A stretch of DNA of 64,000 nucleotides from a virus (taxonomy: Duplodnaviria > Heunggongvirae > Uroviricota > Caudoviricetes). Where the stretch lies: positions 97,983 through 161,982 of IMG/VR virus record IMGVR_UViG_3300011115_000934. One strand, 5' to 3'. Under the pieces are notes generated by a model that was not told the origin of the DNA, ran no database searches, and was given only the letters and a program-made list of their open reading frames with translations. This document shows positions 5,011-57,352 of the stretch, one piece after another. The position numbers and the translations under genes were made by a program. Positions within the stretch are counted from its first letter, which is position 1, and each line of letters begins with the position of its first letter.

Positions 5011-5020
5011 CGTATCTTTA
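4990..5020 (+). promoter_or_regulatory. sigma-A-type promoter TTG-N20-TATCTTTA
   Basis: TTG 4990-4992 inside terminator stem, 20-nt spacer, TATCTTTA 5013-5020. Confidence 0.45.
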
Positions 5021-5124: not shown

Positions 5125-5742
5125 ATGGAAGATTTTTTTGAAGATTTAAAAAACCAGCCTAGACCAAACTTCTTTAGAAGAATTTATCTTTGGTGGGAAC
5201 ATGATGGAAGGTATTATCATAAATATTTTAAACAAGGTGTAAAAAACATTTTATATTGGTTTCCAGTTATCTGGAAGGATAGAGATTGGGATGATCATTA
5301 CATCTTTGAAGTATTAAAACATAAATTAAAAGCTCAAGCTAAATACATTGGTGATAGAGATTTTCATACTAGAGCTAAACTTGATGCTAAAAGAATGAAC
5401 TTATGTGTTAAATTAATTCAATTAATTCAAGATGAACCTTACTCAATGGAGTACATGGACTACCATAAGGACAGAGTATGGTTTACTGATTGTGAAGACA
5501 GACCAGGATCTTCTTTATATAATTCAGAAGAGGTATGGGAAAAGTATGATGATTTCTTTAAAAAATATCCTTTAGTTTATAAAAGAGTACTAAAAGGAGA
5601 AGGGCCATTTACTTTAGATGGTAGAGATGAGGCTGATATGAAAAGAATTATAGCAATGAATATTGCCCATGTTAATCAAGAAAGAGTACATAAACTTCTA
5701 TTTAAAATTTTAGAAGAAAATATTAGAGGTTGGTGGGACTAA
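5125..5742 (+). CDS. hypothetical protein
   Basis: 205-aa ORF, W/Y-rich. Confidence 0.55.
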   Translation: MEDFFEDLKNQPRPNFFRRIYLWWEHDGRYYHKYFKQGVKNILYWFPVIWKDRDWDDHYIFEVLKHKLKAQAKYIGDRDFHTRAKLDAKRMNLCVKLIQLIQDEPYSMEYMDYHKDRVWFTDCEDRPGSSLYNSEEVWEKYDDFFKKYPLVYKRVLKGEGPFTLDGRDEADMKRIIAMNIAHVNQERVHKLLFKILEENIRGWWD

Positions 5743-10971: not shown

Positions 10972-11433
10972 ATGAAATTTCAATCAACAAAAGTCTTCGA
11001 TGGATACTCTACAGTATTTCGTCAATGGAGAGCAGAAGGAACTCACTGTAGGTTCCTACACGGGTATGGTATTTCTTTCAAAATTACATTTGAAGGAGAC
11101 TTAGACGAAAGAAACTGGGTATGGGACTTTGGAGGAATGAAAAGAGCTAAGACTAAGATTGATGGTATGAATCCAAAAGAGTGGATGGACTATATGTTTG
11201 ATCATACCTACTTAGTGGCTGAGGACGATCCATTCCTAATAACAGCATATGCAATGAGCAACGAGAAGGTAATCCAACTAAGAATAGTACCAGCTACAGG
11301 AGCAGAACAATTTGCTAAATTTATTTACGATAAAGTAAATGCATTCGTACTTGAAGAAACAAATAACAGAGTAAGAGTAGTAAGCGTAGAATTTAAAGAA
11401 CATGAGAAAAATTCAGCAATATATGGAGAGTAA
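10972..11433 (+). CDS. queD: 6-carboxy-5,6,7,8-tetrahydropterin synthase-like T-fold protein (QueD family)
   Basis: CxxxHGY zinc motif (THCRFLHGYG) and T-fold length. Confidence 0.65.
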   Translation: MKFQSTKVFDGYSTVFRQWRAEGTHCRFLHGYGISFKITFEGDLDERNWVWDFGGMKRAKTKIDGMNPKEWMDYMFDHTYLVAEDDPFLITAYAMSNEKVIQLRIVPATGAEQFAKFIYDKVNAFVLEETNNRVRVVSVEFKEHEKNSAIYGE

Positions 11434-11788
11434 ATTAGAATTTCTAACTGAGGTAACAGAAGAGTCCTTACCTAAAGTAAAAAATAGGTATTATAAATTT
11501 GGTGCATCTGAAGTACAAGTAGGAGATCAAATTGCTTTTGGAATAATTGAAAGTATTTCTGATGATGGGAAATTAACATCAACACTTCAATCCTTTGTAG
11601 TAGATACAAGCGGAATACTATACCAGCTATCAGAAAATAAACTATGGTCTCCTAAAGGCAATACAGCTGACAAATTCACAATAGGATTCGCAGCATGGTT
11701 ATTAGATAGCTGGACACACCCAGACTTTATACATAAGTCTCCTGAAGAATTAGTAAAAATTTATAAAGAAAATGGTAGCAAAGCCTAA
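11423..11788 (+). CDS. hypothetical protein
   Basis: ORF overlapping queD stop; start at 11402 or 11423. Confidence 0.5.
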   Translation: MESKLEFLTEVTEESLPKVKNRYYKFGASEVQVGDQIAFGIIESISDDGKLTSTLQSFVVDTSGILYQLSENKLWSPKGNTADKFTIGFAAWLLDSWTHPDFIHKSPEELVKIYKENGSKA

Positions 11789-11795
11789 CCTAACA

Positions 11796-11903
11796 ATGGA
11801 TGAATTCCATCAGTACTTACAAAATGTAATAGACTCTAAATTAGATCTAAGACAAAAAGTAGTAGCAGTAGAAAGATATATAAAACAAATAACAGGTAGA
11901 TGA
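11796..11903 (+). CDS. 35-aa micro-ORF (hypothetical)
   Basis: ATG..TGA, overlaps next ATG (ATGA); unannotated gap. Confidence 0.25.
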   Translation: MDEFHQYLQNVIDSKLDLRQKVVAVERYIKQITGR

Positions 11904-12076
11904 CAAAATTAATTATAAAATTTATTAAATTCCTAGCTCATAAAATAGGTTATGACGTAGCATTAGTAGAATACACTCCTGGAGAAATAAGTCTACAAGG
12001 GGATGTAAGACTTCTAAAATTTGTGGATACTATAAAGTACATGCAACATATTCGTAAAGTAAAAAACATAGAATAA
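11900..12076 (+). CDS. 58-aa hypothetical protein
   Basis: Fills gap before the homing-endonuclease gene. Confidence 0.3.
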   Translation: MTKLIIKFIKFLAHKIGYDVALVEYTPGEISLQGDVRLLKFVDTIKYMQHIRKVKNIE

Positions 12077-12169
12077 TAGGTGTGACAGTTGGTAAAGTTA
12101 GAAGTATATTAAGTTATTAAATTTCTGTATATTTTTCTAATTATGTGATATTTATAATAAACATATCAT

Positions 12170-12988
12170 ATGAAAGACAAAATACATTACGTTTATAAAA
12201 TTATAAACATAAAAAATAATAAAGAGTATATCGGAGTTAGGTCACATCCAAATCCTAAAGAAGATGCTTACATGGGTTCTTCTAGAATTTTAGAAAATTT
12301 ATATAAGTTAGAAGGAAAGGAAAATTTTATAAAAGAAATTCTAAAAACTTTTAGTAGTAGAAAAGAAGCAGAGGATTACGAATCATCTCTCTTAACAGAG
12401 AGTTTCTGCAATAGTCCAAATACCTATAACATAATTAATACTGGAGAGTTTAGCGACAATAAACATGGATTCAGAAAAGATATCTGGTTCGATTACTACG
12501 ATCAGATTAGAGAGAAATATGTACAAGGCAAAACTACAAAAGAATTAGGAGATTATTATAATTGTGACGGCGGTACTATAAGAATGATTGTACAGGATAT
12601 TAAAAGAACAAACGCAGAATCTCAAAAACTCAGATATGATAAATTCCTTACATCAGGTAACCGTGATTTAGAATTAGATAAACATATAGGAGACATAGTA
12701 AAACTGTATGTAGAAGACGTAAAATCATTAATTTATATATCAAAACAATATGGAGTTGATCAAGGTACAATAAAGAGGAGATTGATAGTAGAGGGAGTAG
12801 CTATTAGAGATCATAAAGTATCTCAACAATTAAGAAATGATAATAGAAAACGAGCAAAAGCTTGGAATTTTGAAAAAGAAATCGTATCTTTATTTCTACA
12901 AGGAGTTAATATTCCTACTTTAAGTAGGACATATGAAAGTGATTATATGACAATCAAATCGATATTACAACATAATAAATTAAAATAA
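12170..12988 (+). CDS. GIY-YIG homing endonuclease (free-standing)
   Basis: N-terminal HYVYKIINIKNNKEYIGV...Y.GSS GIY-YIG module + basic C-terminal DNA-binding region; sits between queD and queE. Confidence 0.7.
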   Translation: MKDKIHYVYKIINIKNNKEYIGVRSHPNPKEDAYMGSSRILENLYKLEGKENFIKEILKTFSSRKEAEDYESSLLTESFCNSPNTYNIINTGEFSDNKHGFRKDIWFDYYDQIREKYVQGKTTKELGDYYNCDGGTIRMIVQDIKRTNAESQKLRYDKFLTSGNRDLELDKHIGDIVKLYVEDVKSLIYISKQYGVDQGTIKRRLIVEGVAIRDHKVSQQLRNDNRKRAKAWNFEKEIVSLFLQGVNIPTLSRTYESDYMTIKSILQHNKLK

Positions 12989-12993
12989 GTAAC

Positions 12994-13788
12994 ATGGAAA
13001 TACAAAAAAAGAAATTAGGTAGAATTGAGGATTATAACAAAACACTTCCTATCATTGAGCTATACTCCTGTGTCCAAAGTGAGGGGAGTAGAGCAGGATA
13101 TCCTACAATTGCAATTCGAACTACTGGCTGTACTCACCGCTGCTGGTTCGGAGATGGAGGATGGTGCGACAGTTGGTATAGTTCTATTCATCCAGAAAAG
13201 GGAAGTTCAACTTTCCAAGACATTATTAACATGTACGATGCAAATCCTCACATCACAGAGATGATGTTAACAGGAGGATCACCTACAATGCATCCTGCAT
13301 TAGTAAATGAGCTAACACATTTTGCACATGAAAGAAAAATATTTATCACTATTGAAACTGAAGGAAGTCATTTTCTGGAGACTGACTATCCTATTAATTT
13401 ACTTTCCATATCACCTAAGTTTAGTAACTCGGTTCCTAAAATCGGAGTACTTACACCTCAAGGAGCGGTTACGGATGAGAAAATGATCAAGCAGCATAAC
13501 AAGCTAAGATTAAACTACGATGCAATGTCTAAATCAATTGCATACCACTCCGATTATCATTTGAAACCAGTATGGGATGGAGAGGATCAAGAAGCATTAA
13601 AAGAGATCATGGGTTGTATAAAAATACTAGATATCCCCGAAGATAAAGTATGGTTTATGCCTGCAGGAGATTCAAGAGAAGCCTTATTTAAATCATATCC
13701 AAAAATGTTTGATTGGGTGAGAGATAACGGATTTAGATTAACATGGAGGCCTCACATCATTGCATTTGAAGATCAAAGAGAAGTATAG
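12994..13788 (+). CDS. queE: 7-carboxy-7-deazaguanine synthase (radical SAM, QueE)
   Basis: SCVQSEGSRAGYPTIAIRTTGCTHRCWF matches the QueE N-terminal signature (xQGEGxxxGxPxxFIRxxGC); Cys spacing is atypical: C-x3-C-x7-C. Confidence 0.75.
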   Translation: MEIQKKKLGRIEDYNKTLPIIELYSCVQSEGSRAGYPTIAIRTTGCTHRCWFGDGGWCDSWYSSIHPEKGSSTFQDIINMYDANPHITEMMLTGGSPTMHPALVNELTHFAHERKIFITIETEGSHFLETDYPINLLSISPKFSNSVPKIGVLTPQGAVTDEKMIKQHNKLRLNYDAMSKSIAYHSDYHLKPVWDGEDQEALKEIMGCIKILDIPEDKVWFMPAGDSREALFKSYPKMFDWVRDNGFRLTWRPHIIAFEDQREV

Positions 13789-13790
13789 GA

Positions 13791-13975
13791 TGAGACCAGC
13801 AACTACAGTAGAAACATTGTACACTCTTCATACACTGTGGAGAAAGAACCAAATGGAAACAGCACAAGTAAAGCACTTACTAAAAACTAGCTGCTTCTTA
13901 GACCTAACAAGCATAACAAATGGAGGCATTACAGCTCAATCCATAGACGGTAAAACTAAATATTCAATTAAATAA
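13791..13975 (+). CDS. hypothetical protein
   Basis: 61-aa ORF (ORF-track start 13760 overlaps queE). Confidence 0.4.
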
Positions 13976-13981
13976 ATAAAA

Positions 13982-14251
13982 ATGACATTACAAGAATTAA
14001 TTAATTTAGCAGGAGATAGAGACCTATCAAAATCATATCCAAAAGCAGATGGAGTTTACATCTGGGATTACAAATTACAATACAAGCAAGACTTTGAACT
14101 AGAATTGGTACTAATACCAAGCGACTCAAGTAAAGCAGGATTCAAAGACAAAGTATCAGTACAAGAGCTAATAGATTACGTTTTAGATCAATCTATATTT
14201 ACAGAATTAGAAATTGTAGGAGTAGAAGGATTAACAATAGCAAAAGTATAA
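13982..14251 (+). CDS. hypothetical protein
   Basis: 89-aa ORF. Confidence 0.5.
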   Translation: MTLQELINLAGDRDLSKSYPKADGVYIWDYKLQYKQDFELELVLIPSDSSKAGFKDKVSVQELIDYVLDQSIFTELEIVGVEGLTIAKV

Positions 14252-14252
14252 T

Positions 14253-14831
14253 ATGAAAAAGTTTTTATTAGTACTGCTATTACCAATACTTGGGTTCGGA
14301 CAACTAAGAGACAGCGTTTACGTGAATACAGACATCTATGAGGTGATGTATTCTGAAAAGCTAGAACAGCCACTTTGGGTAAAATACCAAGTAGCTTGTA
14401 CGGATGGTAAAGCATCAAGAAAAGGAATGGACTTTTACACAGACAAAAAGATTCACACATCAGATGCAAAAGATTATGCATTTAATGTTTACGACAAAGG
14501 ACACTGTGCACCAGCAGCAGATTTTAATTGTAATAGAGAAATGTTATTCAAAACATTCTCATATCTAAACTGTACTCTTCAGAATGAAAGATTAAATAGA
14601 ATTCATTGGAGATTATTAGAAGATTATGAAAGAACACTAGCAATTACTGAAGGCCCAGTATATGTCGAAATACGAATGGTCTTTGACACCAATCCCAGAC
14701 GAGTACCTGCAGGTGCAGCTATTCCTTCCGCTTTCTATAAAATTATTAAAACAAGAAGTAAGAAGATTGCATTTTTCTTTAAGAATGAGCAACCAACCAA
14801 GGCAACGTTTAAAGATTACCAGATAAAGTAA
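14253..14831 (+). CDS. secreted DNA/RNA non-specific endonuclease (Serratia-nuclease family)
   Basis: Signal peptide MKKFLLVLLLPILGFG; DKGHCAPAADF..N motif equivalent to the DRGH active site. Confidence 0.65.
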   Translation: MKKFLLVLLLPILGFGQLRDSVYVNTDIYEVMYSEKLEQPLWVKYQVACTDGKASRKGMDFYTDKKIHTSDAKDYAFNVYDKGHCAPAADFNCNREMLFKTFSYLNCTLQNERLNRIHWRLLEDYERTLAITEGPVYVEIRMVFDTNPRRVPAGAAIPSAFYKIIKTRSKKIAFFFKNEQPTKATFKDYQIK

Positions 14832-14833
14832 CT

Positions 14834-15238
14834 ATGGCACTAAAAGCAGGCAATAAGGTCTATCTAAGTTGGGATGACATAGAGGATCTAGTAAACAAAT
14901 TATGTACCACAATCCAAAGAGTAAATCCTGATATAAAAAGTGTAACAGGAATTAAAAGAGGAGGATTAATACCAGCAGTTATGGTCTCACACAGACTGAA
15001 CATTCCTTATGTAGAAACTATTAATGCAAGTACTTTGGTCATAGATGATATTTGTGATACAGGAGAAACGTTAAAAGGATTAGTTACTGGAGTTCCAACA
15101 GCAGTTCTTCACTACAAACCACACACATCAGTATTCACACCAAGCATATTTGCAGAAGAGCACAACGGGGATGAGTGGATAATATATCCATGGGAAAGAA
15201 GAGATTCAGAAGCAATTCAAGATTACTTAAAAAAATAA
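14834..15238 (+). CDS. type I phosphoribosyltransferase (purine PRTase-like)
   Basis: PRPP-binding loop VIDDICDTGETL. Confidence 0.65.
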   Translation: MALKAGNKVYLSWDDIEDLVNKLCTTIQRVNPDIKSVTGIKRGGLIPAVMVSHRLNIPYVETINASTLVIDDICDTGETLKGLVTGVPTAVLHYKPHTSVFTPSIFAEEHNGDEWIIYPWERRDSEAIQDYLKK

Positions 15239-15254
15239 CTAAAATTAAATAAAC

Positions 15255-15455
15255 ATGAACAACTATTGGCAAGTAACAGTACAGTTACAACACGAAAGTG
15301 ATAAAGGAAAGGTACAAAGAATCAATGAGCAGTACATAGTGAATGCAGTATCAGCTACAGAAGCTGAAGCAAAGATCTATAAAGACTTTGAAGGAGAATC
15401 AAACTTTGAAGTAATTCGAGTAGCTCAAACAAAGATTATAAAAATAATTGAGTAA
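15255..15455 (+). CDS. hypothetical protein
   Basis: 66-aa ORF. Confidence 0.45.
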   Translation: MNNYWQVTVQLQHESDKGKVQRINEQYIVNAVSATEAEAKIYKDFEGESNFEVIRVAQTKIIKIIE

Positions 15456-15483
15456 AAAGTTGCCTCTTCGGAGGCTTCTTTGT
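15455..15483 (+). terminator. terminator GCCTC-TTCG-GAGGC + T-rich
   Basis: Stem 15462-15466/15471-15475; the next promoter is TTG 15460 / TATATTAA 15483-15490. Confidence 0.5.
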
Positions 15484-15505
15484 ATATTAATAAAAAAGTA
15501 AAGTT

Positions 15506-16012
15506 ATGTTAAATAATGCAGATCAAGTAGAACAACTTCTACAAACAAACGGTAAAGGAGCAAAGGCTCAAGTAGGTTATGATTTAACTCTCAAAGAAGT
15601 AACAAGAATTAATGGAGGAGCAGTTTTCTCAGATAAAACTGTAGTACATGAGTACACACCTATCGTTCCATTGGATACAACAGACACTTCAATGGATCAG
15701 GACGGAACAGGTAGAATAATCTTTGCTCTTGATCCAGGAACGTACAGCTTGACATTTGAACAAGGAGTAAAGCTTCCAAGCGGTAAGACAGCATTCATCA
15801 GACACAGATCAAGCATCCTAAGATGTGGTGGAATAATTACATCAGGAGTTTACGATCCAGGATTTGAAGTAGATGAGATGGGTGGAGTGTTAATAGCAAC
15901 ACGACCAATTACTATTGAGAAAGGAGCAAGAGTAGCTCAGATTATTATCTTTGATAATTTTGATGCAGAACTATATGCAGGTCAGTGGCAAGGAACTAAA
16001 GACGTAAAGTAA
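15506..16012 (+). CDS. dCTP deaminase/dUTPase-fold protein
   Basis: Beta-rich, G-rich motifs (GxYDPGFEVDEMGG, RVAQIIIF) of dUTPase/Dcd superfamily. Confidence 0.55.
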   Translation: MLNNADQVEQLLQTNGKGAKAQVGYDLTLKEVTRINGGAVFSDKTVVHEYTPIVPLDTTDTSMDQDGTGRIIFALDPGTYSLTFEQGVKLPSGKTAFIRHRSSILRCGGIITSGVYDPGFEVDEMGGVLIATRPITIEKGARVAQIIIFDNFDAELYAGQWQGTKDVK

Positions 16013-16013
16013 T

Positions 16014-16370
16014 ATGAAAACAAAAACAACGGTTATAGTAAAATTAGCAGTGGATGGTTGTCATAACTTTCCCAAAGCAGCAGAGTTATTTCCAGAAGTG
16101 GACTTTCTATCTGACAGACACAGACACATGTTTCACTTCACAGTAGCATGTGAGGTTACCCATTCAGATCGTGATAAGGAATTTATCATGTTGAAAAGAG
16201 ACATTATTGATTACATCAATGGAGAATACTTTAATGACTTTACAAGAACTTGTGAGTTTGATTCAAGATCATGTGAGATGTTAGCAGAGGAAGTGTTAAA
16301 GGAATTTGATGCTGAATGGGTTGAAGTTTGGGAGGATATGGAAAATGGTGCTAAAGTAGAAAAGATATAA
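16014..16370 (+). CDS. second T-fold (PTPS/QueD-like) protein
   Basis: 118 aa; H(17) and RHRHMFHF histidine cluster positioned like the PTPS zinc ligands; weak. Confidence 0.3.
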   Translation: MKTKTTVIVKLAVDGCHNFPKAAELFPEVDFLSDRHRHMFHFTVACEVTHSDRDKEFIMLKRDIIDYINGEYFNDFTRTCEFDSRSCEMLAEEVLKEFDAEWVEVWEDMENGAKVEKI

Positions 16371-16837
16371 TGAAAGTAGTATTTTTATTTGGAGAGATAT
16401 GCTCAGGTAAGAGCACACTTGACTTTGGAACACAATCTTCAAGAATTACTGTATCTAATATAGTAAAGAGGTTGATGCAATCTGAGGATAGAGAGGTACT
16501 GCAAAACTCTAAACATCTTGATAATATAATAGCAGATGAGATTATAGAGGAGATTGAGAACATATATAGCTACGCATATCCATTTTCACATACAGTTATT
16601 ATAGATGGAATAAGACAGTATTCAATCGTAGAGCAAGTACAACAGTGGTTGACTAATTCTACAAAAATAAAACTAGAATACAAATGGTTAGAAGTTGGTA
16701 GAGAAGAACGTAAAAGAAGATTCGAAGCTCGTAAAGATCCTAAGGATACTTTAACATTTGAAGAGGCAGAAAAAAGAGACAATGCGTTGGGATTATCAGA
16801 TTTATTTAGTATATTAAAAGAACAAAATAAGATATAA
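16370..16837 (+). CDS. P-loop kinase, dNMP-kinase-like
   Basis: MKVVFLFGEICSGKSTL resembles T4 gp1 MKLIFLSGVKRSGKDT N-terminus. Confidence 0.5.
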   Translation: MKVVFLFGEICSGKSTLDFGTQSSRITVSNIVKRLMQSEDREVLQNSKHLDNIIADEIIEEIENIYSYAYPFSHTVIIDGIRQYSIVEQVQQWLTNSTKIKLEYKWLEVGREERKRRFEARKDPKDTLTFEEAEKRDNALGLSDLFSILKEQNKI

Positions 16838-16841
16838 AAAT

Positions 16842-17483
16842 ATGGAGTTATTAAAAAAAGCCAATGGCAACTTACCTCGTACAACTGAGGAGAAAGCACA
16901 AATGATCGAACAAGCTGCGAAGTATTACGGAGAGTTCTTAACAGCATTAGGATTCGACTGGAGAGCAGATCAGCATAGTGATCGTACACCTCATCGTGTA
17001 GCGAAAGCATGGGTTAATGATCTTATTGCAGGATCAATCAGTGAAGAGCCAGAGATTACAGCATTCCCTAATGATGAAGGGTACACAGGATTAATTTGTC
17101 AAACTCGTATCCCAGTAATGAGTATGTGTGCACATCACAACCTAACATTCTCAGGAGTAGCTCACGTAGCATACATTGCAGGAAAAGAAAAGACAGATTT
17201 AGTTATTGGTTTAAGTAAATTGAATCGTATTGTAGATTTCTATTCTCGTAGACCAAACATCCAAGAAAGTTTGACTAAACAAATTCATGATCACGTTGAA
17301 AGACTTTGTGTAGGTAATAGAGGAGTTGCAGTAGTGATTGAATCACAACACAACTGTGTAAGATGTAGAGGAATTAAACAAGATTCAGTAATGAAGACTT
17401 CACAAATGTCAGGATACTTCTGGACTAATGAAGTAGGTACTCGTCAAGAATTCTTTAACCTAATTGATCAAAGCAGATATTAA
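16842..17483 (+). CDS. folE: GTP cyclohydrolase I
   Basis: Catalytic/zinc segment MCAHHNLTFSGVAHVAYIAG...VIESQHNCVRCRG conserved in FolE. Confidence 0.85.
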   Translation: MELLKKANGNLPRTTEEKAQMIEQAAKYYGEFLTALGFDWRADQHSDRTPHRVAKAWVNDLIAGSISEEPEITAFPNDEGYTGLICQTRIPVMSMCAHHNLTFSGVAHVAYIAGKEKTDLVIGLSKLNRIVDFYSRRPNIQESLTKQIHDHVERLCVGNRGVAVVIESQHNCVRCRGIKQDSVMKTSQMSGYFWTNEVGTRQEFFNLIDQSRY

Positions 17484-18264
17484 TATGGACGTTTACGTAA
17501 TATCACCAGTAAGTGACTTAGAGCCAATGAAGTTGGGAGATCGCATCTTCGTATTGGCTCACTTATGGATTCAGTTTCCAGAGTACAGAGCCTTTATCCT
17601 AGAACAAAAAGAGCAAGGTAAGTTCATAACATTAGATAATTCAGCAGCTGAAAGAGCATTAGTAACTGAAGATATTCTAATTGAAGTATGTAGAGAACTT
17701 ATGCCTGATGAGGTAATAGCACCAGACGTTTTATTCAACAAAGAGGAAACAATTCTTAACGCAAGAATGTTCAGAGATCGTATGGAGCAAGAGGGATTGT
17801 TAGGAACGATTGATATCTTTTTCTGTCCACAAGGAGAGACTAAAGAGGCATGGCTAAATGCATACAACTGGGCAATAAACCAAAGTTGGATTGATGTAAT
17901 AGGATTTTCTAAAATAGCAATACCAAATGTATTCCTAGAAAACTATACAGACGATCAAGGAATTAAAGAAGCTCGTCACATGGCATACGACTATCTGAAA
18001 GAGAAAGGATTATTAGTAAAGCCTATTCACTGTTTAGGTCAAGGAGATCCAACAGAGTTTGCATATTACGATCATCCAATGATGAGAAGTACAGACTCAG
18101 TGTATCCAGTATTTGCAGCATCACTAGGACAAGATTTCTTAATTGATCATACAACACGTACTCCAACACCTCACAACTTCTTAGAGACGTTTGATATGTC
18201 AGATGTTACTCCTGAACTTATTACCTCTAATGTAGAATTTTTAATTAACCAAGCACGTAAATAA
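17464..18264 (+). CDS. dpdA: tRNA-guanine-transglycosylase-superfamily protein, DpdA-like DNA 7-deazaguanine transglycosylase candidate
   Basis: TLDNSAAE aligns to the TGT DSGGFQ catalytic Asp and RSTDSVYPV to the FDCVxPTR Asp; no zinc subdomain; adjacent to folE. Confidence 0.45.
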   Translation: MIKADINMDVYVISPVSDLEPMKLGDRIFVLAHLWIQFPEYRAFILEQKEQGKFITLDNSAAERALVTEDILIEVCRELMPDEVIAPDVLFNKEETILNARMFRDRMEQEGLLGTIDIFFCPQGETKEAWLNAYNWAINQSWIDVIGFSKIAIPNVFLENYTDDQGIKEARHMAYDYLKEKGLLVKPIHCLGQGDPTEFAYYDHPMMRSTDSVYPVFAASLGQDFLIDHTTRTPTPHNFLETFDMSDVTPELITSNVEFLINQARK

Positions 18265-55336: not shown

Positions 55337-55594
55337 ATGACAGTAAAAGAACTAATTCAAAGTCTAAGTAAGATAGAAGACCAAGACATAAGAGTAATGG
55401 TAAGAGGATATGAAAGAGGAGTAAATAATATAGAAGATATAATTCCAGCAATTGAAAATATAGCGTTAGATGTAAATGATGAATGGTATTACGGAAGACA
55501 TGAAGTACAAAACTTTGATCATGAGTATAGAGATAAACAAATAGTACAAGCAATAATACTAACAGGACACAATGCAAGTATGGGGAGTAAATAA
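55337..55594 (+). CDS. hypothetical protein
   Basis: 85 aa. Confidence 0.45.
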   Translation: MTVKELIQSLSKIEDQDIRVMVRGYERGVNNIEDIIPAIENIALDVNDEWYYGRHEVQNFDHEYRDKQIVQAIILTGHNASMGSK

Positions 55595-55763
55595 ACTAAA
55601 GGATCCAAATTCAAATCATATCCTAAGGAAGGTTATAAAGAGAAGAGAACAATTACTTACTAGGGAACAAACTCCTAAGGTAATCAAAGAGCTTAAATAC
55701 CTAGACAAAAGGATGGAGATAGGGGAGATGCTATTGGAAAGATGGTATGAAAACCATTTGTAA
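55572..55763 (+). CDS. hypothetical protein
   Basis: 63 aa; its 3' end runs into iteron array A. Confidence 0.4.
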   Translation: MQVWGVNKLKDPNSNHILRKVIKRREQLLTREQTPKVIKELKYLDKRMEIGEMLLERWYENHL

Positions 55764-55835
55764 AACCGATCACAAAACCGTCTACCAAACCGTTTCGCTA
55801 ACCGTTTATATAACCAATTAGCCAACCAATCCTAT
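55750..55835 (+). repeat. iteron array A: 7 x 12-bp-phased (A)AACC(G/A)(T/A)T units
   Basis: CC(G/A) trinucleotides at 55754, 55766, 55778, 55790, 55802, 55814, 55826, i.e. exact 12-bp phase. Confidence 0.7.
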
Positions 55836-56095
55836 AACACATAATAAGGGAGTAGAAACGGGGATAATTGCTGAGAAACATATGTGAATACGTAAGGAGA
55901 TCTGAGAATGGAACGTTTGTCAAACTGATTGCAAGTATATAAAGTACATAGTACTAGGTAATACATAATACTATATATGATATGGTAATGCGTATAAAAG
56001 AGAGGGAAGAGGGTCAAATAAAATTAGTAATTAACTGTCACGTGTTCACCTCTATAACAAATTGCTATATAGAAGATGTTTTCCTCCTTTAGAAC
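55836..56095. other. AT-rich ORF-poor core between the two iteron arrays
   Basis: About 260 bp, highly AT-rich, no convincing ORF. Confidence 0.4.
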
Positions 56096-56265
56096 CGTTT
56101 ATAAACACCTAGAAAACCGTTTGGAAAAGCGATTGGCAAACCGATCACAGAACCGATTAGGGAACCGTTTGGCAAACCGACTAGCAAACCGTTTGGGGAA
56201 CCGTCTAGTAAACCGATCCTAAAACCGATTTGGCTAACCGATTCGCAATAGAAAACCGTTTTGGT
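56096..56265 (+). repeat. iteron array B: 11 perfectly phased + 3 flanking 12-bp units, consensus GnAAACCGaTTn
   Basis: CCG (once GCG) at 56118, 56130, 56142, 56154, 56166, 56178, 56190, 56202, 56214, 56226, 56239, plus 56096 and 56257; same orientation as array A. Confidence 0.75.
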
Positions 56266-56329
56266 TACGAATATAATAACTGACCCCTATAGCAAAAGTA
56301 AAAAACATTGCGAATAATGTAAAAAAGTG

Positions 56330-56360
56330 TTGCCTGGCAAGCAAAAAAAGAGTATCTTTA
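56330..56360 (+). promoter_or_regulatory. promoter TTG-N20-TATCTTTA
   Basis: TTG 56330-56332, -7 element 56353-56360. Confidence 0.45.
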
Positions 56361-56378
56361 GGGACTAAAGACAAACAT

Positions 56379-56594
56379 ATGACACGTACCCAGGATCTAA
56401 ACACAGTAATAGGAAAAGATTGTTCATGTAATCAGTCTCCTACCCTTAGGGCTAAATTAATCTCAGTAGGCAAACACAAAAGCCTTCTGGAGGTAACCGC
56501 AACTATGTATAGTAGAGCGCAGTGGAATAATATCTACGTAGGGAAAAAGTTTACCCTGGACAACACAATCGCTCACAATATGTATTTTTTCTAG
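56379..56594 (+). CDS. hypothetical protein
   Basis: 71-aa ORF behind a consensus promoter. Confidence 0.4.
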   Translation: MTRTQDLNTVIGKDCSCNQSPTLRAKLISVGKHKSLLEVTATMYSRAQWNNIYVGKKFTLDNTIAHNMYFF

Positions 56595-56703
56595 CCCTAT
56601 GAAAACAATTACCTTAACAATTCAAGAGAGGTGGGCCGCTTCCCAGCACAAGGTGCACAAAAGCAAAAAAACATACGATAGGAAAAATTTACCTAAAGTA
56701 ATA

Positions 56704-56769
56704 CTTTCAGTTAAATCATAGCTTTCAGTTAAAGTGTTGATGGAAGTGAAAGCATTCCTTTCAGTTAAA
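56704..56769 (+). repeat. 3 x CTTTCAGTTAAA direct repeats
   Basis: Copies at 56704, 56722, 56758 in an ORF-free region. Confidence 0.45.
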
Positions 56770-56949
56770 GCTTTGCTTTAAGTAACGAATGTGGAGCGCT
56801 CTCCGGTCTACTCTTCCGGATTGTCAGATCCAGGCCCCTGTCGCATCTCTGCTTTTTCAATACCTAAAGATACCCCTAAAGATCTTTATATGCAACAGTT
56901 TGATCAATTATTTTTGTTATTTTTTTTCATTCTAAATAACAGTTGACTG

Positions 56950-56980
56950 TTGACTTGTACGTTCTTTTATAGTATCTTTA
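56950..56980 (+). promoter_or_regulatory. promoter TTGAC(x2)-N20-TATCTTTA
   Basis: Tandem GTTGACT at 56942-56956; -7 element 56973-56980. Confidence 0.45.
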
Positions 56981-57007
56981 AGTATTAATAATTAAAACAA
57001 CAACATT

Positions 57008-57352
57008 ATGAAAAAATTTGTAGAAGTATTTGTAGGAAGTAGAGGATGTTTAGAAGAAGTTAAATTAGTAGAAACTTATTTTACTTTGAATGAGTATTAT
57101 GAGGATGTAGTAGAGAAGATTAAAGATGAAATGAAAGAAGATTGTGAAGATGAAGAGGATTTAGAATTTATGACTGAATTTGTAGGAGTTGAGGATTATG
57201 AAGGATTTAGTGTAGTAGGATTAAATGAAGAAGAAAGTTTAATTGTATTTGATTTTGATGTGAATAAAGAAGTTTGTGAAAAACTTTTAGAATTGTTTGA
57301 AAATGAAGATGAAGAAGGAATTATGAATATTATTGATAATTTAGATTATTAA
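57008..57352 (+). CDS. highly acidic small protein
   Basis: 114 aa, >35% D/E. Confidence 0.5.
   Translation: MKKFVEVFVGSRGCLEEVKLVETYFTLNEYYEDVVEKIKDEMKEDCEDEEDLEFMTEFVGVEDYEGFSVVGLNEEESLIVFDFDVNKEVCEKLLELFENEDEEGIMNIIDNLDY

Follow-up and report, generated by a model that had tools for sequence, protein, structure and literature searches.

The replication origins that lie inside lambda O and SPP1 gene 38 are built from short direct repeats in one orientation together with a meltable or low-complexity stretch, in phages that replicate with a DnaB-type helicase; the classical lambda iterons are ~19 bp long. R1 parC is a split direct-repeat centromere. The ends of T7, which we read directly, comprise five CCTAAAG-type units (SRR), a 160-bp terminal repeat and 12 further units at 12–13 bp spacing (SRL), all in one orientation and followed by the early promoters. 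We know of no established role for these T7 arrays. In phi29, protein p6 binds with a monomer every 12 bp and a dimer every 24 bp, wraps the DNA in a superhelix and acts in origin activation and the early-to-late switch (PMC10899789), and the two iteron clusters of the split c-st centromere tubC form a double ring that partly covers a promoter (PMC6009700). Here we describe a locus in a 64,000-nucleotide stretch of a Caudoviricetes virus (positions 97,983 to 161,982 of IMG/VR record IMGVR_UViG_3300011115_000934; hereafter the window), in which two arrays of a 12-bp-phased heptamer flank a conserved core. The window belongs to an Immutovirus-like Flavobacterium myophage with a large genome, its GroEL, QueD/E and other genes being syntenic with those of the cultured phage immuto. 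Amongst the roles considered for the locus, that of a replication origin, which we hold tentatively, is the single most likely.

Two phased repeat arrays around a conserved core

Scanning the window for every AACC[GA] located the units of both arrays, all of which are on the + strand. Array A (55752–55835) consists of seven direct AACC(G/A)WT units, four of them AACCG and three AACCA variants, on an exact 12-bp lattice with starts at 55752, 55764, 55776, 55788, 55800, 55812 and 55824. Array B (56093–56265) comprises 13 direct AACCGWT units, starting at 56093, 56115, 56127, 56139, 56151, 56163, 56175, 56187, 56199, 56211, 56223, 56236 and 56254. Ten of these positions, from 56115 to 56223, are spaced by exactly 12 bp and hold nine exact motifs and one degenerate one (AAGCG, 56127); the other three are out-of-phase flankers at offsets of -22, +13 (56236) and +18 (56254). 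The original prediction for this DNA had assigned seven units to array A and a shared orientation to both arrays, which the scan bore out, and had given array B 11 phased and three flanking units, a count that we revise to the 13 above. The unit consensus is AACCG(T/A)TT(A/G)G-N-A, with 9–10 of its 12 positions informative, and the spacers of array B alternate weakly between TTTGG and AYTAG with a 24-bp period.

The concentration of the motif is pronounced. On the + strand, 17 of the 22 AACCG occurrences in the window fall within these 515 bp, and the - strand of the window has only seven in total. Lag-12 base-identity autocorrelation reached 0.63 in array A (z = 6.7) and 0.56 in array B (z = 8.6); it was not significant in the core (0.32, z = 1.2), and downstream DNA likewise showed none. 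Both arrays were also recovered by TRF and a repeat finder.

The core between the arrays (55836–56092) is 257 bp long and lacks the 12-bp periodicity. It had been described as a 260-bp AT-rich segment, a description that holds for its central 40–60 bp only: GC content is 32.7% over the whole core versus a window mean of 34.2%, and drops to 22–28% in the easily melted centre (55936–55995). This centre contains the conserved block ATAGTACTAGGTA...(G/A)TACT, which is an imperfect palindrome around AGTACT at 55950–55955. The central 40–60 bp rank among the 0.4–0.9% least stable windows of the 64 kb, where dozens of comparable sites exist elsewhere. Scanning the core for an early-type phage promoter found none on either strand, and folding it as single-stranded DNA gave a result no better than for shuffled sequence. 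The core also contains a single occurrence of TGTTCACC (56043–56050), kept in the relative L121 and not in the relative L122 or immuto; its letters are those of the type I origin iteron of phage P4, a match that is probably due to chance.

Searches with neighbouring genes retrieved L121 (99%) and L122 (85%, from the 156.9-kb contig IMGVR_UViG_3300012346_000561), both with AACCG arrays at the same place, and immuto carries syntenic arrays at 66317–66411 and 66770–66889 with the motif ACCCGT. A conserved 22-mer downstream of the arrays, used as a query, retrieved a further view of the locus in 11 viral and 26 metagenome loci. The layout was constant in every locus that reached far enough, with an array A of 5–9 units, a core of 219–315 bp, an array B of 8–14 units and then the first early promoter, and at least 14 distinct relatives share it, including immuto and the 156.9-kb contig. 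The original prediction had named a lack of the arrays at the syntenic position in related phages as a result that would count against it; they were kept in every relative found. A 62% neighbour, L123, was without the region, and blastn of the locus against GenBank phages and plasmids returned no match. Core blocks are common to relatives with either form of the motif, most clearly ATAGTACTAGGTA...(G/A)TACT and ATG(T/C)GTA.

Only two motif classes were observed, AACCG(W)T and ACCCGT, and arrays A and B of one genome always belong to the same class. Because both arrays switch class together, a single co-evolving, sequence-specific binder is indicated. The units of the ACCCG class are spaced by alternating steps of 11, 12 and 13 bp that disrupt all reading frames, and the arrays are therefore taken to be non-coding. 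The period averages 11.95 bp, with slips of +/-1 bp being compensated (lag-1 correlation -0.39, cumulative drift within 3 bp), these statistics coming from arrays related by descent, the steps of which are not independent. Across the complete 160-kb genome of immuto, a generic scan for phased 5-mers detected no non-coding array apart from this locus. The earlier proposal that the arrays are protein-binding repeats is thus supported by their non-randomness, syntenic conservation and motif co-variation. Judged from these sequence comparisons, they are almost certainly a selected docking platform for one sequence-specific phage protein, the specificity of which appears to have changed at one base.

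A candidate iteron-type replication origin

It is quite possible, and on balance we prefer this reading, that the locus is an iteron-type replication origin at which a multimeric, sequence-specific phage protein would assemble. The reading draws on the uniqueness and conservation of the locus, the co-variation of its motif, the type of replisome, the meltable core centre, the negative supercoiling expected there, its place in immuto between a terminator and the first early promoter, and a parallel in other phages that is set out below. Iteron origins carry direct repeats of one motif, in one orientation and with regular spacing, and the locus has 20 such units at a 12-bp period. The immuto genome encodes DnaB, DnaG, a single-stranded DNA-binding protein (SSB), a RecA-like protein and PolA, and a replisome of the DnaB/DnaG type normally needs an origin-binding initiator.

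A working model can be drawn from this arrangement. One protein species would bind the A(A/C)CCG(T/A)T units of both arrays head-to-tail, a protomer occupying every 12 bp and possibly a dimer every 24 bp. Relative to a 10.5-bp helical repeat, successive sites would be rotated by ~+51 degrees, so that seven units (84 bp, or eight helical turns) would complete one full revolution. As 12 bp exceeds the helical repeat, a laterally contacting filament would have to untwist the DNA towards 12 bp per turn, a loss of about one turn in 84 bp, or coil it into a superhelix. The slight over-winding originally proposed from the phasing therefore has the wrong sign; under-winding or a superhelical path is implied. 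The strain, together with negative supercoiling behind the ~20 strong rightward early promoters, would be delivered to the conserved core, where the AT-rich, palindrome-bearing centre would melt and the phage DnaB-type helicase would be loaded. Replication would then proceed co-directionally with the uniformly rightward transcription. In this model we infer the protein, its cooperativity, the melting and the start of replication at the locus.

The parallel comes from viral contigs that were scanned for three AACCGWT units at 12-bp spacing. Most of the matches were coding tandem repeats, and two groups were informative. The first comprised at least 20 unrelated viral contigs, mostly of high GC content, that carry 3–8 AACGGTT units at 12 bp in the linker of DnaD/O-like initiator genes (L034, L174, L177, L194, L223, L245, L266, L272 and ~12 more). 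The units follow directly after the N-terminal domain, which PHROGs label as a DnaD-like helicase loader, a replication initiation protein or O-like. In ~10 of the 20 loci, those with a captured flank, dnaB lay directly 3' of the array-bearing gene (as Pfam confirmed for all six open reading frames (ORFs) tested), and at one locus a DnaC/IstB-like ATPase gene lay between the initiator gene and dnaB. The N-terminal domains are only 33–43% identical across the set. The repeats are translated in two frames, as ETVS/QTVT in some genes and NGSx/NGLx in others, which argues that the DNA motif and not the peptide is conserved. The origin of lambda inside O has the same arrangement. By this analogy, AACGGTT at 12-bp spacing appears to serve as an origin iteron in other phages, and the in-gene arrays are a widespread and apparently undescribed iteron type.

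These arrays share the identical heptamer and the 12-bp spacing with our locus. The locus differs from lambda-type origins in being non-coding, in distributing 20 units over two blocks around a 257-bp conserved core and in having no recognisable initiator gene beside it. The DnaD/O-like N-terminal domain had no homologue in the window or in immuto, so the parallel supports a similar way of working and not membership of the same family. A second candidate parallel, the 12-nt iterons described at oriE of T4 (PMC3016281), was rejected: they are the 24-bp-period coding repeats of the gp5 C-terminal beta-helix in gene 5 (T4 79,402–79,569; 5403–5570 in the contig L169) and are not known to have a role at an origin.

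Several results count against an origin, and the foremost concerns the initiator. A cognate initiator is usually encoded near an iteron origin, and none was found amongst the neighbours or near dnaB and dnaG: Pfam and PHROG scans of the neighbouring genes, the early genes and the hypothetical genes beside dnaB/dnaG returned no initiator match. Amongst the window and immuto ORFs, neither the DnaD/O-like N-terminal domain nor a 264-aa protein of the L053 lineage described below had a homologue, the best matches having E-values of 0.6 and 0.047 in a tiny database. Host DnaA boxes were not found at the locus, and their counts in the window equalled chance. Classical iterons are 17–22 bp long, recur every ~22 bp and lie to one side of the unwinding element instead of surrounding it, and the core here is conserved in sequence rather than merely AT-rich, with an overall GC content equal to the genome mean. 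T4-like phages can replicate without iteron origins. GC skew, proposed earlier as a check, was computed along the whole 160-kb immuto genome; it was positive everywhere and gave no origin signal, a measure that is uninformative here because all the genes are co-oriented. The two nearest small ORFs also fail as binders, and in the second informative group of contigs, which belongs to another phage lineage, repeats with this motif and phase directly precede a putative terS-terL-portal module; both points are taken up below. The description of the locus as the best candidate for the replication origin thus stands as the most likely reading, on the strength of its uniqueness, its conservation and the DnaB/DnaG/PolA replisome, and is weakened by the lack of an initiator gene, which may belong to a novel family.

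Possible roles in packaging, early transcription and partition

The second informative group consisted of seven contigs of one low-GC lineage (L053 7706–7880, L012 3437–3500, L186, L195, L222, L226 and L236), in which 5–10 GTAACCGTT units at 12 bp accompany an AT-rich stretch. These arrays lie immediately upstream of an unannotated 253–273-aa gene, followed by genes for the large terminase (TerL) and a P22-like portal; the GTAACCGTT locus may be either a pac site or an inter-module origin. Its setting speaks for packaging at our locus as well, where the core would be a direct terminal repeat or a terminase cut site and the arrays would be flanking recognition repeats, in a T7-like or pac-like manner. 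In one variant, each subunit of a small-terminase ring could recognise one unit. At the pac sites of P1 and SPP1, the cut is likewise flanked by repeat clusters on either side. The conserved blocks of the core, including its palindrome, fit such a signal, as does the position of the locus at the seam of a one-directional genome, after its last gene and before its first early one, where fixed ends usually lie; the ~240 genes of immuto are all on one strand, except for about nine tiny minus-strand ORFs (31–84 aa, at least one of them spurious).

The T7 concatemer junction has nearly the same anatomy, with two same-orientation heptamer arrays, a segment of 160–260 bp between them, early promoters directly after them and one-directional transcription. 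T7 differs in being a 40-kb podovirus with a T7-type terminase and in having copies of the motif inside the terminal repeat as well, whereas the phage studied here has a T4-like terminase. With the function of the T7 arrays itself not established, the analogy is anatomical only. The immuto genome has T4-like portal, capsid and large-terminase genes, and its TerL is 32–33% identical to the terminases of T4-like cyanophages and 27% identical to that of T4, which places it with the T4 gp17 type and not with the fixed-end T7 gp19 type. Terminases of the T4 gp17 family package by the headful mechanism without fixed ends. Furthermore, the immuto arrays (66.3–66.9 kb) are ~52 kb from TerL (119.0–120.6 kb), whereas pac sites usually lie in or beside terS, and the left ends of the 26 metagenome contigs did not pile up at a single core position, although this is weak evidence. 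Weighing these points, we regard a packaging or terminus signal as a serious but rather unlikely explanation. A scheme that joins it to an origin is more doubtful again: the arrays would recruit a filament- or ring-forming protein of a new family, able to read DNA hypermodified with 7-deazaguanine, and the bipartite complex would not only trigger a unidirectional origin but also tell the T4-type terminase where a fixed genome end lies or where packaging begins, as a T7-style concatemer junction in a T4-like myovirus.

The original prediction had also placed the locus at the boundary between the accessory genes and the early-gene array, and this position was confirmed. In immuto a terminator hairpin lies upstream of array A, and the first promoter follows array B; the arrays and core are therefore predicted to be transcriptionally silent, in the gap that separates the last accessory gene from the early-gene array. 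The last upstream ORF (55572–55763, + strand, 63 aa) has its stop codon within the second unit of array A and is not conserved at the corresponding position in L122 or immuto. Downstream, the early-promoter consensus (A)GTTGC-N19-TATCTTTAGGTATTAATAATTAAAACAACAA-ATG, which we take to be of the Bacteroidetes -33/-7 type, occurs in ~20 copies between 56353 and 63876. The first (56323–56364, + strand; TTGC at 56330, TATCTTTA at 56353) lies ~60 bp past array B, and the second (56943–56984, + strand) drives the first gene of the dense early array (57008–57352). Near-identical strong promoters of the form AAAAAGTTGC-N19-GTATCTTTAGGTATTAATAATTAAAACAACAA-ATG are also present at 5013, 8195, 49639, 50566 and 53703. 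Each strong promoter precedes a small ORFan gene, and the dense early-gene array has a lower GC content and a higher GC skew.

One further copy of the early promoter (56861–56902, - strand) points at the arrays. It is conserved in immuto (67555), and neither the 64-kb window nor the entire 160-kb genome of immuto has any other copy of the consensus on the minus strand. The transcript that it would produce is a candidate small RNA (sRNA) of 170–200 nt (56690–56856, - strand), with a GC-rich 5' domain and four copies of UUUAACUGAAAG at an 18-bp period (+ coordinates 56704–56783). This stretch is the best conserved piece of the region, with 4–5 UUUAACUGAAAG copies when relatives are included; one hairpin is backed by compensatory changes, and a bidirectional terminator is present in most relatives. 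Rfam and tRNA scans found nothing, leaving the candidate sRNA without an Rfam match.

This crowding of signals bears on whether the arrays nucleate an architectural or regulatory complex like that of phi29 p6, polymerizing outwards to shut off or insulate early transcription, to block read-through from upstream or to organize the genome. The spacing of p6 protomers matches the 12-bp period of the arrays, and that of its dimers a 24-bp superperiod of which there are hints; superhelical wrapping and a link to an origin and early promoters would be further points of likeness (PMC10899789). The short distance from the end of array B to the first of the ~20 early promoters is in keeping with such a role, and the sole leftward promoter and candidate sRNA beside the locus suggest a regulatory hub. 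Protein p6 is not sequence-specific and reads bendability via the minor groove (PMC10899789), in contrast to the strictly conserved, co-varying motif of 7–10 bp found here, and phi29 replication is protein-primed from linear ends. Twenty sites are also far more than repression of one promoter would need, the other early promoters have no such sites, and no p6-like or repressor gene was identified. A complex of this kind is likewise a serious but rather unlikely explanation.

Two small ORFs lie between the first early promoter and the first early gene at 57008. Along with that promoter, the leftward promoter and the candidate sRNA, they occupy what had been described as a 1.2-kb ORF-poor setting (the promoter at 56323–64 and the ORFs at 56379–56721), so that description no longer applies. 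The first (56379–56594, + strand, 71 aa) is present only in some relatives and absent from immuto and L121. The second (56599–56721, + strand) is small, basic and conserved, with 40 aa here and 44–53 aa in relatives, and follows the pattern MKTI(T/Q)(L/V)T(I/L)QERWAASxHxVHKSKK.Y.RK; it differs from immuto mainly at synonymous positions, an indication that a real small protein is encoded. Both were considered as the array binder and rejected. The 40-aa ORF, as a ribbon-helix-helix-like candidate, is identical over residues 1–34 between L122 (AACCG) and L128 (ACCCG) and hence does not co-vary with motif class. The 71-aa ORF separates by class in three versus three sequences, yet its absence from immuto and L121, which carry arrays, means that it cannot be the binder. 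A screen of the flanking gene families for class-specific divergence separated only two small clusters, on too few data and confounded by phylogeny.

These ORFs also enter into the case for a partition centromere, which would maintain a carrier or plasmid-like state through split direct-repeat arrays bound by a small centromere-binding protein. Two same-orientation arrays flank the core, and the second abuts the promoter for the small basic ORFs; R1 parC and c-st tubC likewise have two clusters of direct iterons with a spacer, on which cooperative ring or helical scaffolds overlap a promoter (PMC6009700). Those centromeres lie directly beside their par operon, whereas the spacer here is much longer and no partition NTPase or centromere-binding protein was seen. 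No ParA, ParM or TubZ-type gene was present in the immuto annotation or the scanned neighbours, the conserved small ORF does not co-vary with the motif, and immuto was deposited as a virulent myovirus. We consider a centromere very unlikely; the parS-like site once offered as an alternative is weak for want of partition genes.

A cis-element in fully modified DNA

All G residues of immuto are substituted by 7-(formylamino)methyl-7-deazaguanine (fdPreQ1) (PMC10516641). The window encodes, within 10972–18129, QueD, QueE, FolE and a divergent DpdA that is only 27% identical to DpdA3 of immuto, and no QueC, QueF or DpdN was found in it. Given this DpdA divergence and the lack of those three genes, the two motif classes may carry different 7-deazaguanine modifications. 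The modification also bears on the idea that the arrays dock or decoy a host protein, for instance a transcription factor of Flavobacterium or a defence sensor, with the motif classes reflecting different hosts. Discrete motif classes and the failure to identify a phage-encoded binder would both fit a host partner. fdPreQ1 at every G (PMC10516641) is a major-groove change that would hinder host proteins adapted to normal DNA, and a layout that stays constant while the motif switches suits a phage-encoded partner better, making a host decoy highly improbable.

Literature searches on the motif and on the function of the T7 arrays returned nothing usable, and as far as the literature searched shows, the element appears to be undescribed. 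It is unusual in its bipartite layout around a long conserved core, its 12-bp lattice and its clean two-state specificity switch, and also in that no initiator could be recognised and that it lies in DNA fully modified with 7-deazaguanine. Immutovirus-like phages, in which all guanines are modified, infect Flavobacterium and are abundant in fresh water and the Baltic, and the locus provides them with a single, sharply defined and evolutionarily validated cis-element. The natural specificity swap between AACCG and ACCCG is a handle for finding the binding protein, and together with the sharp definition of the locus it makes the question of origin or terminus directly testable.

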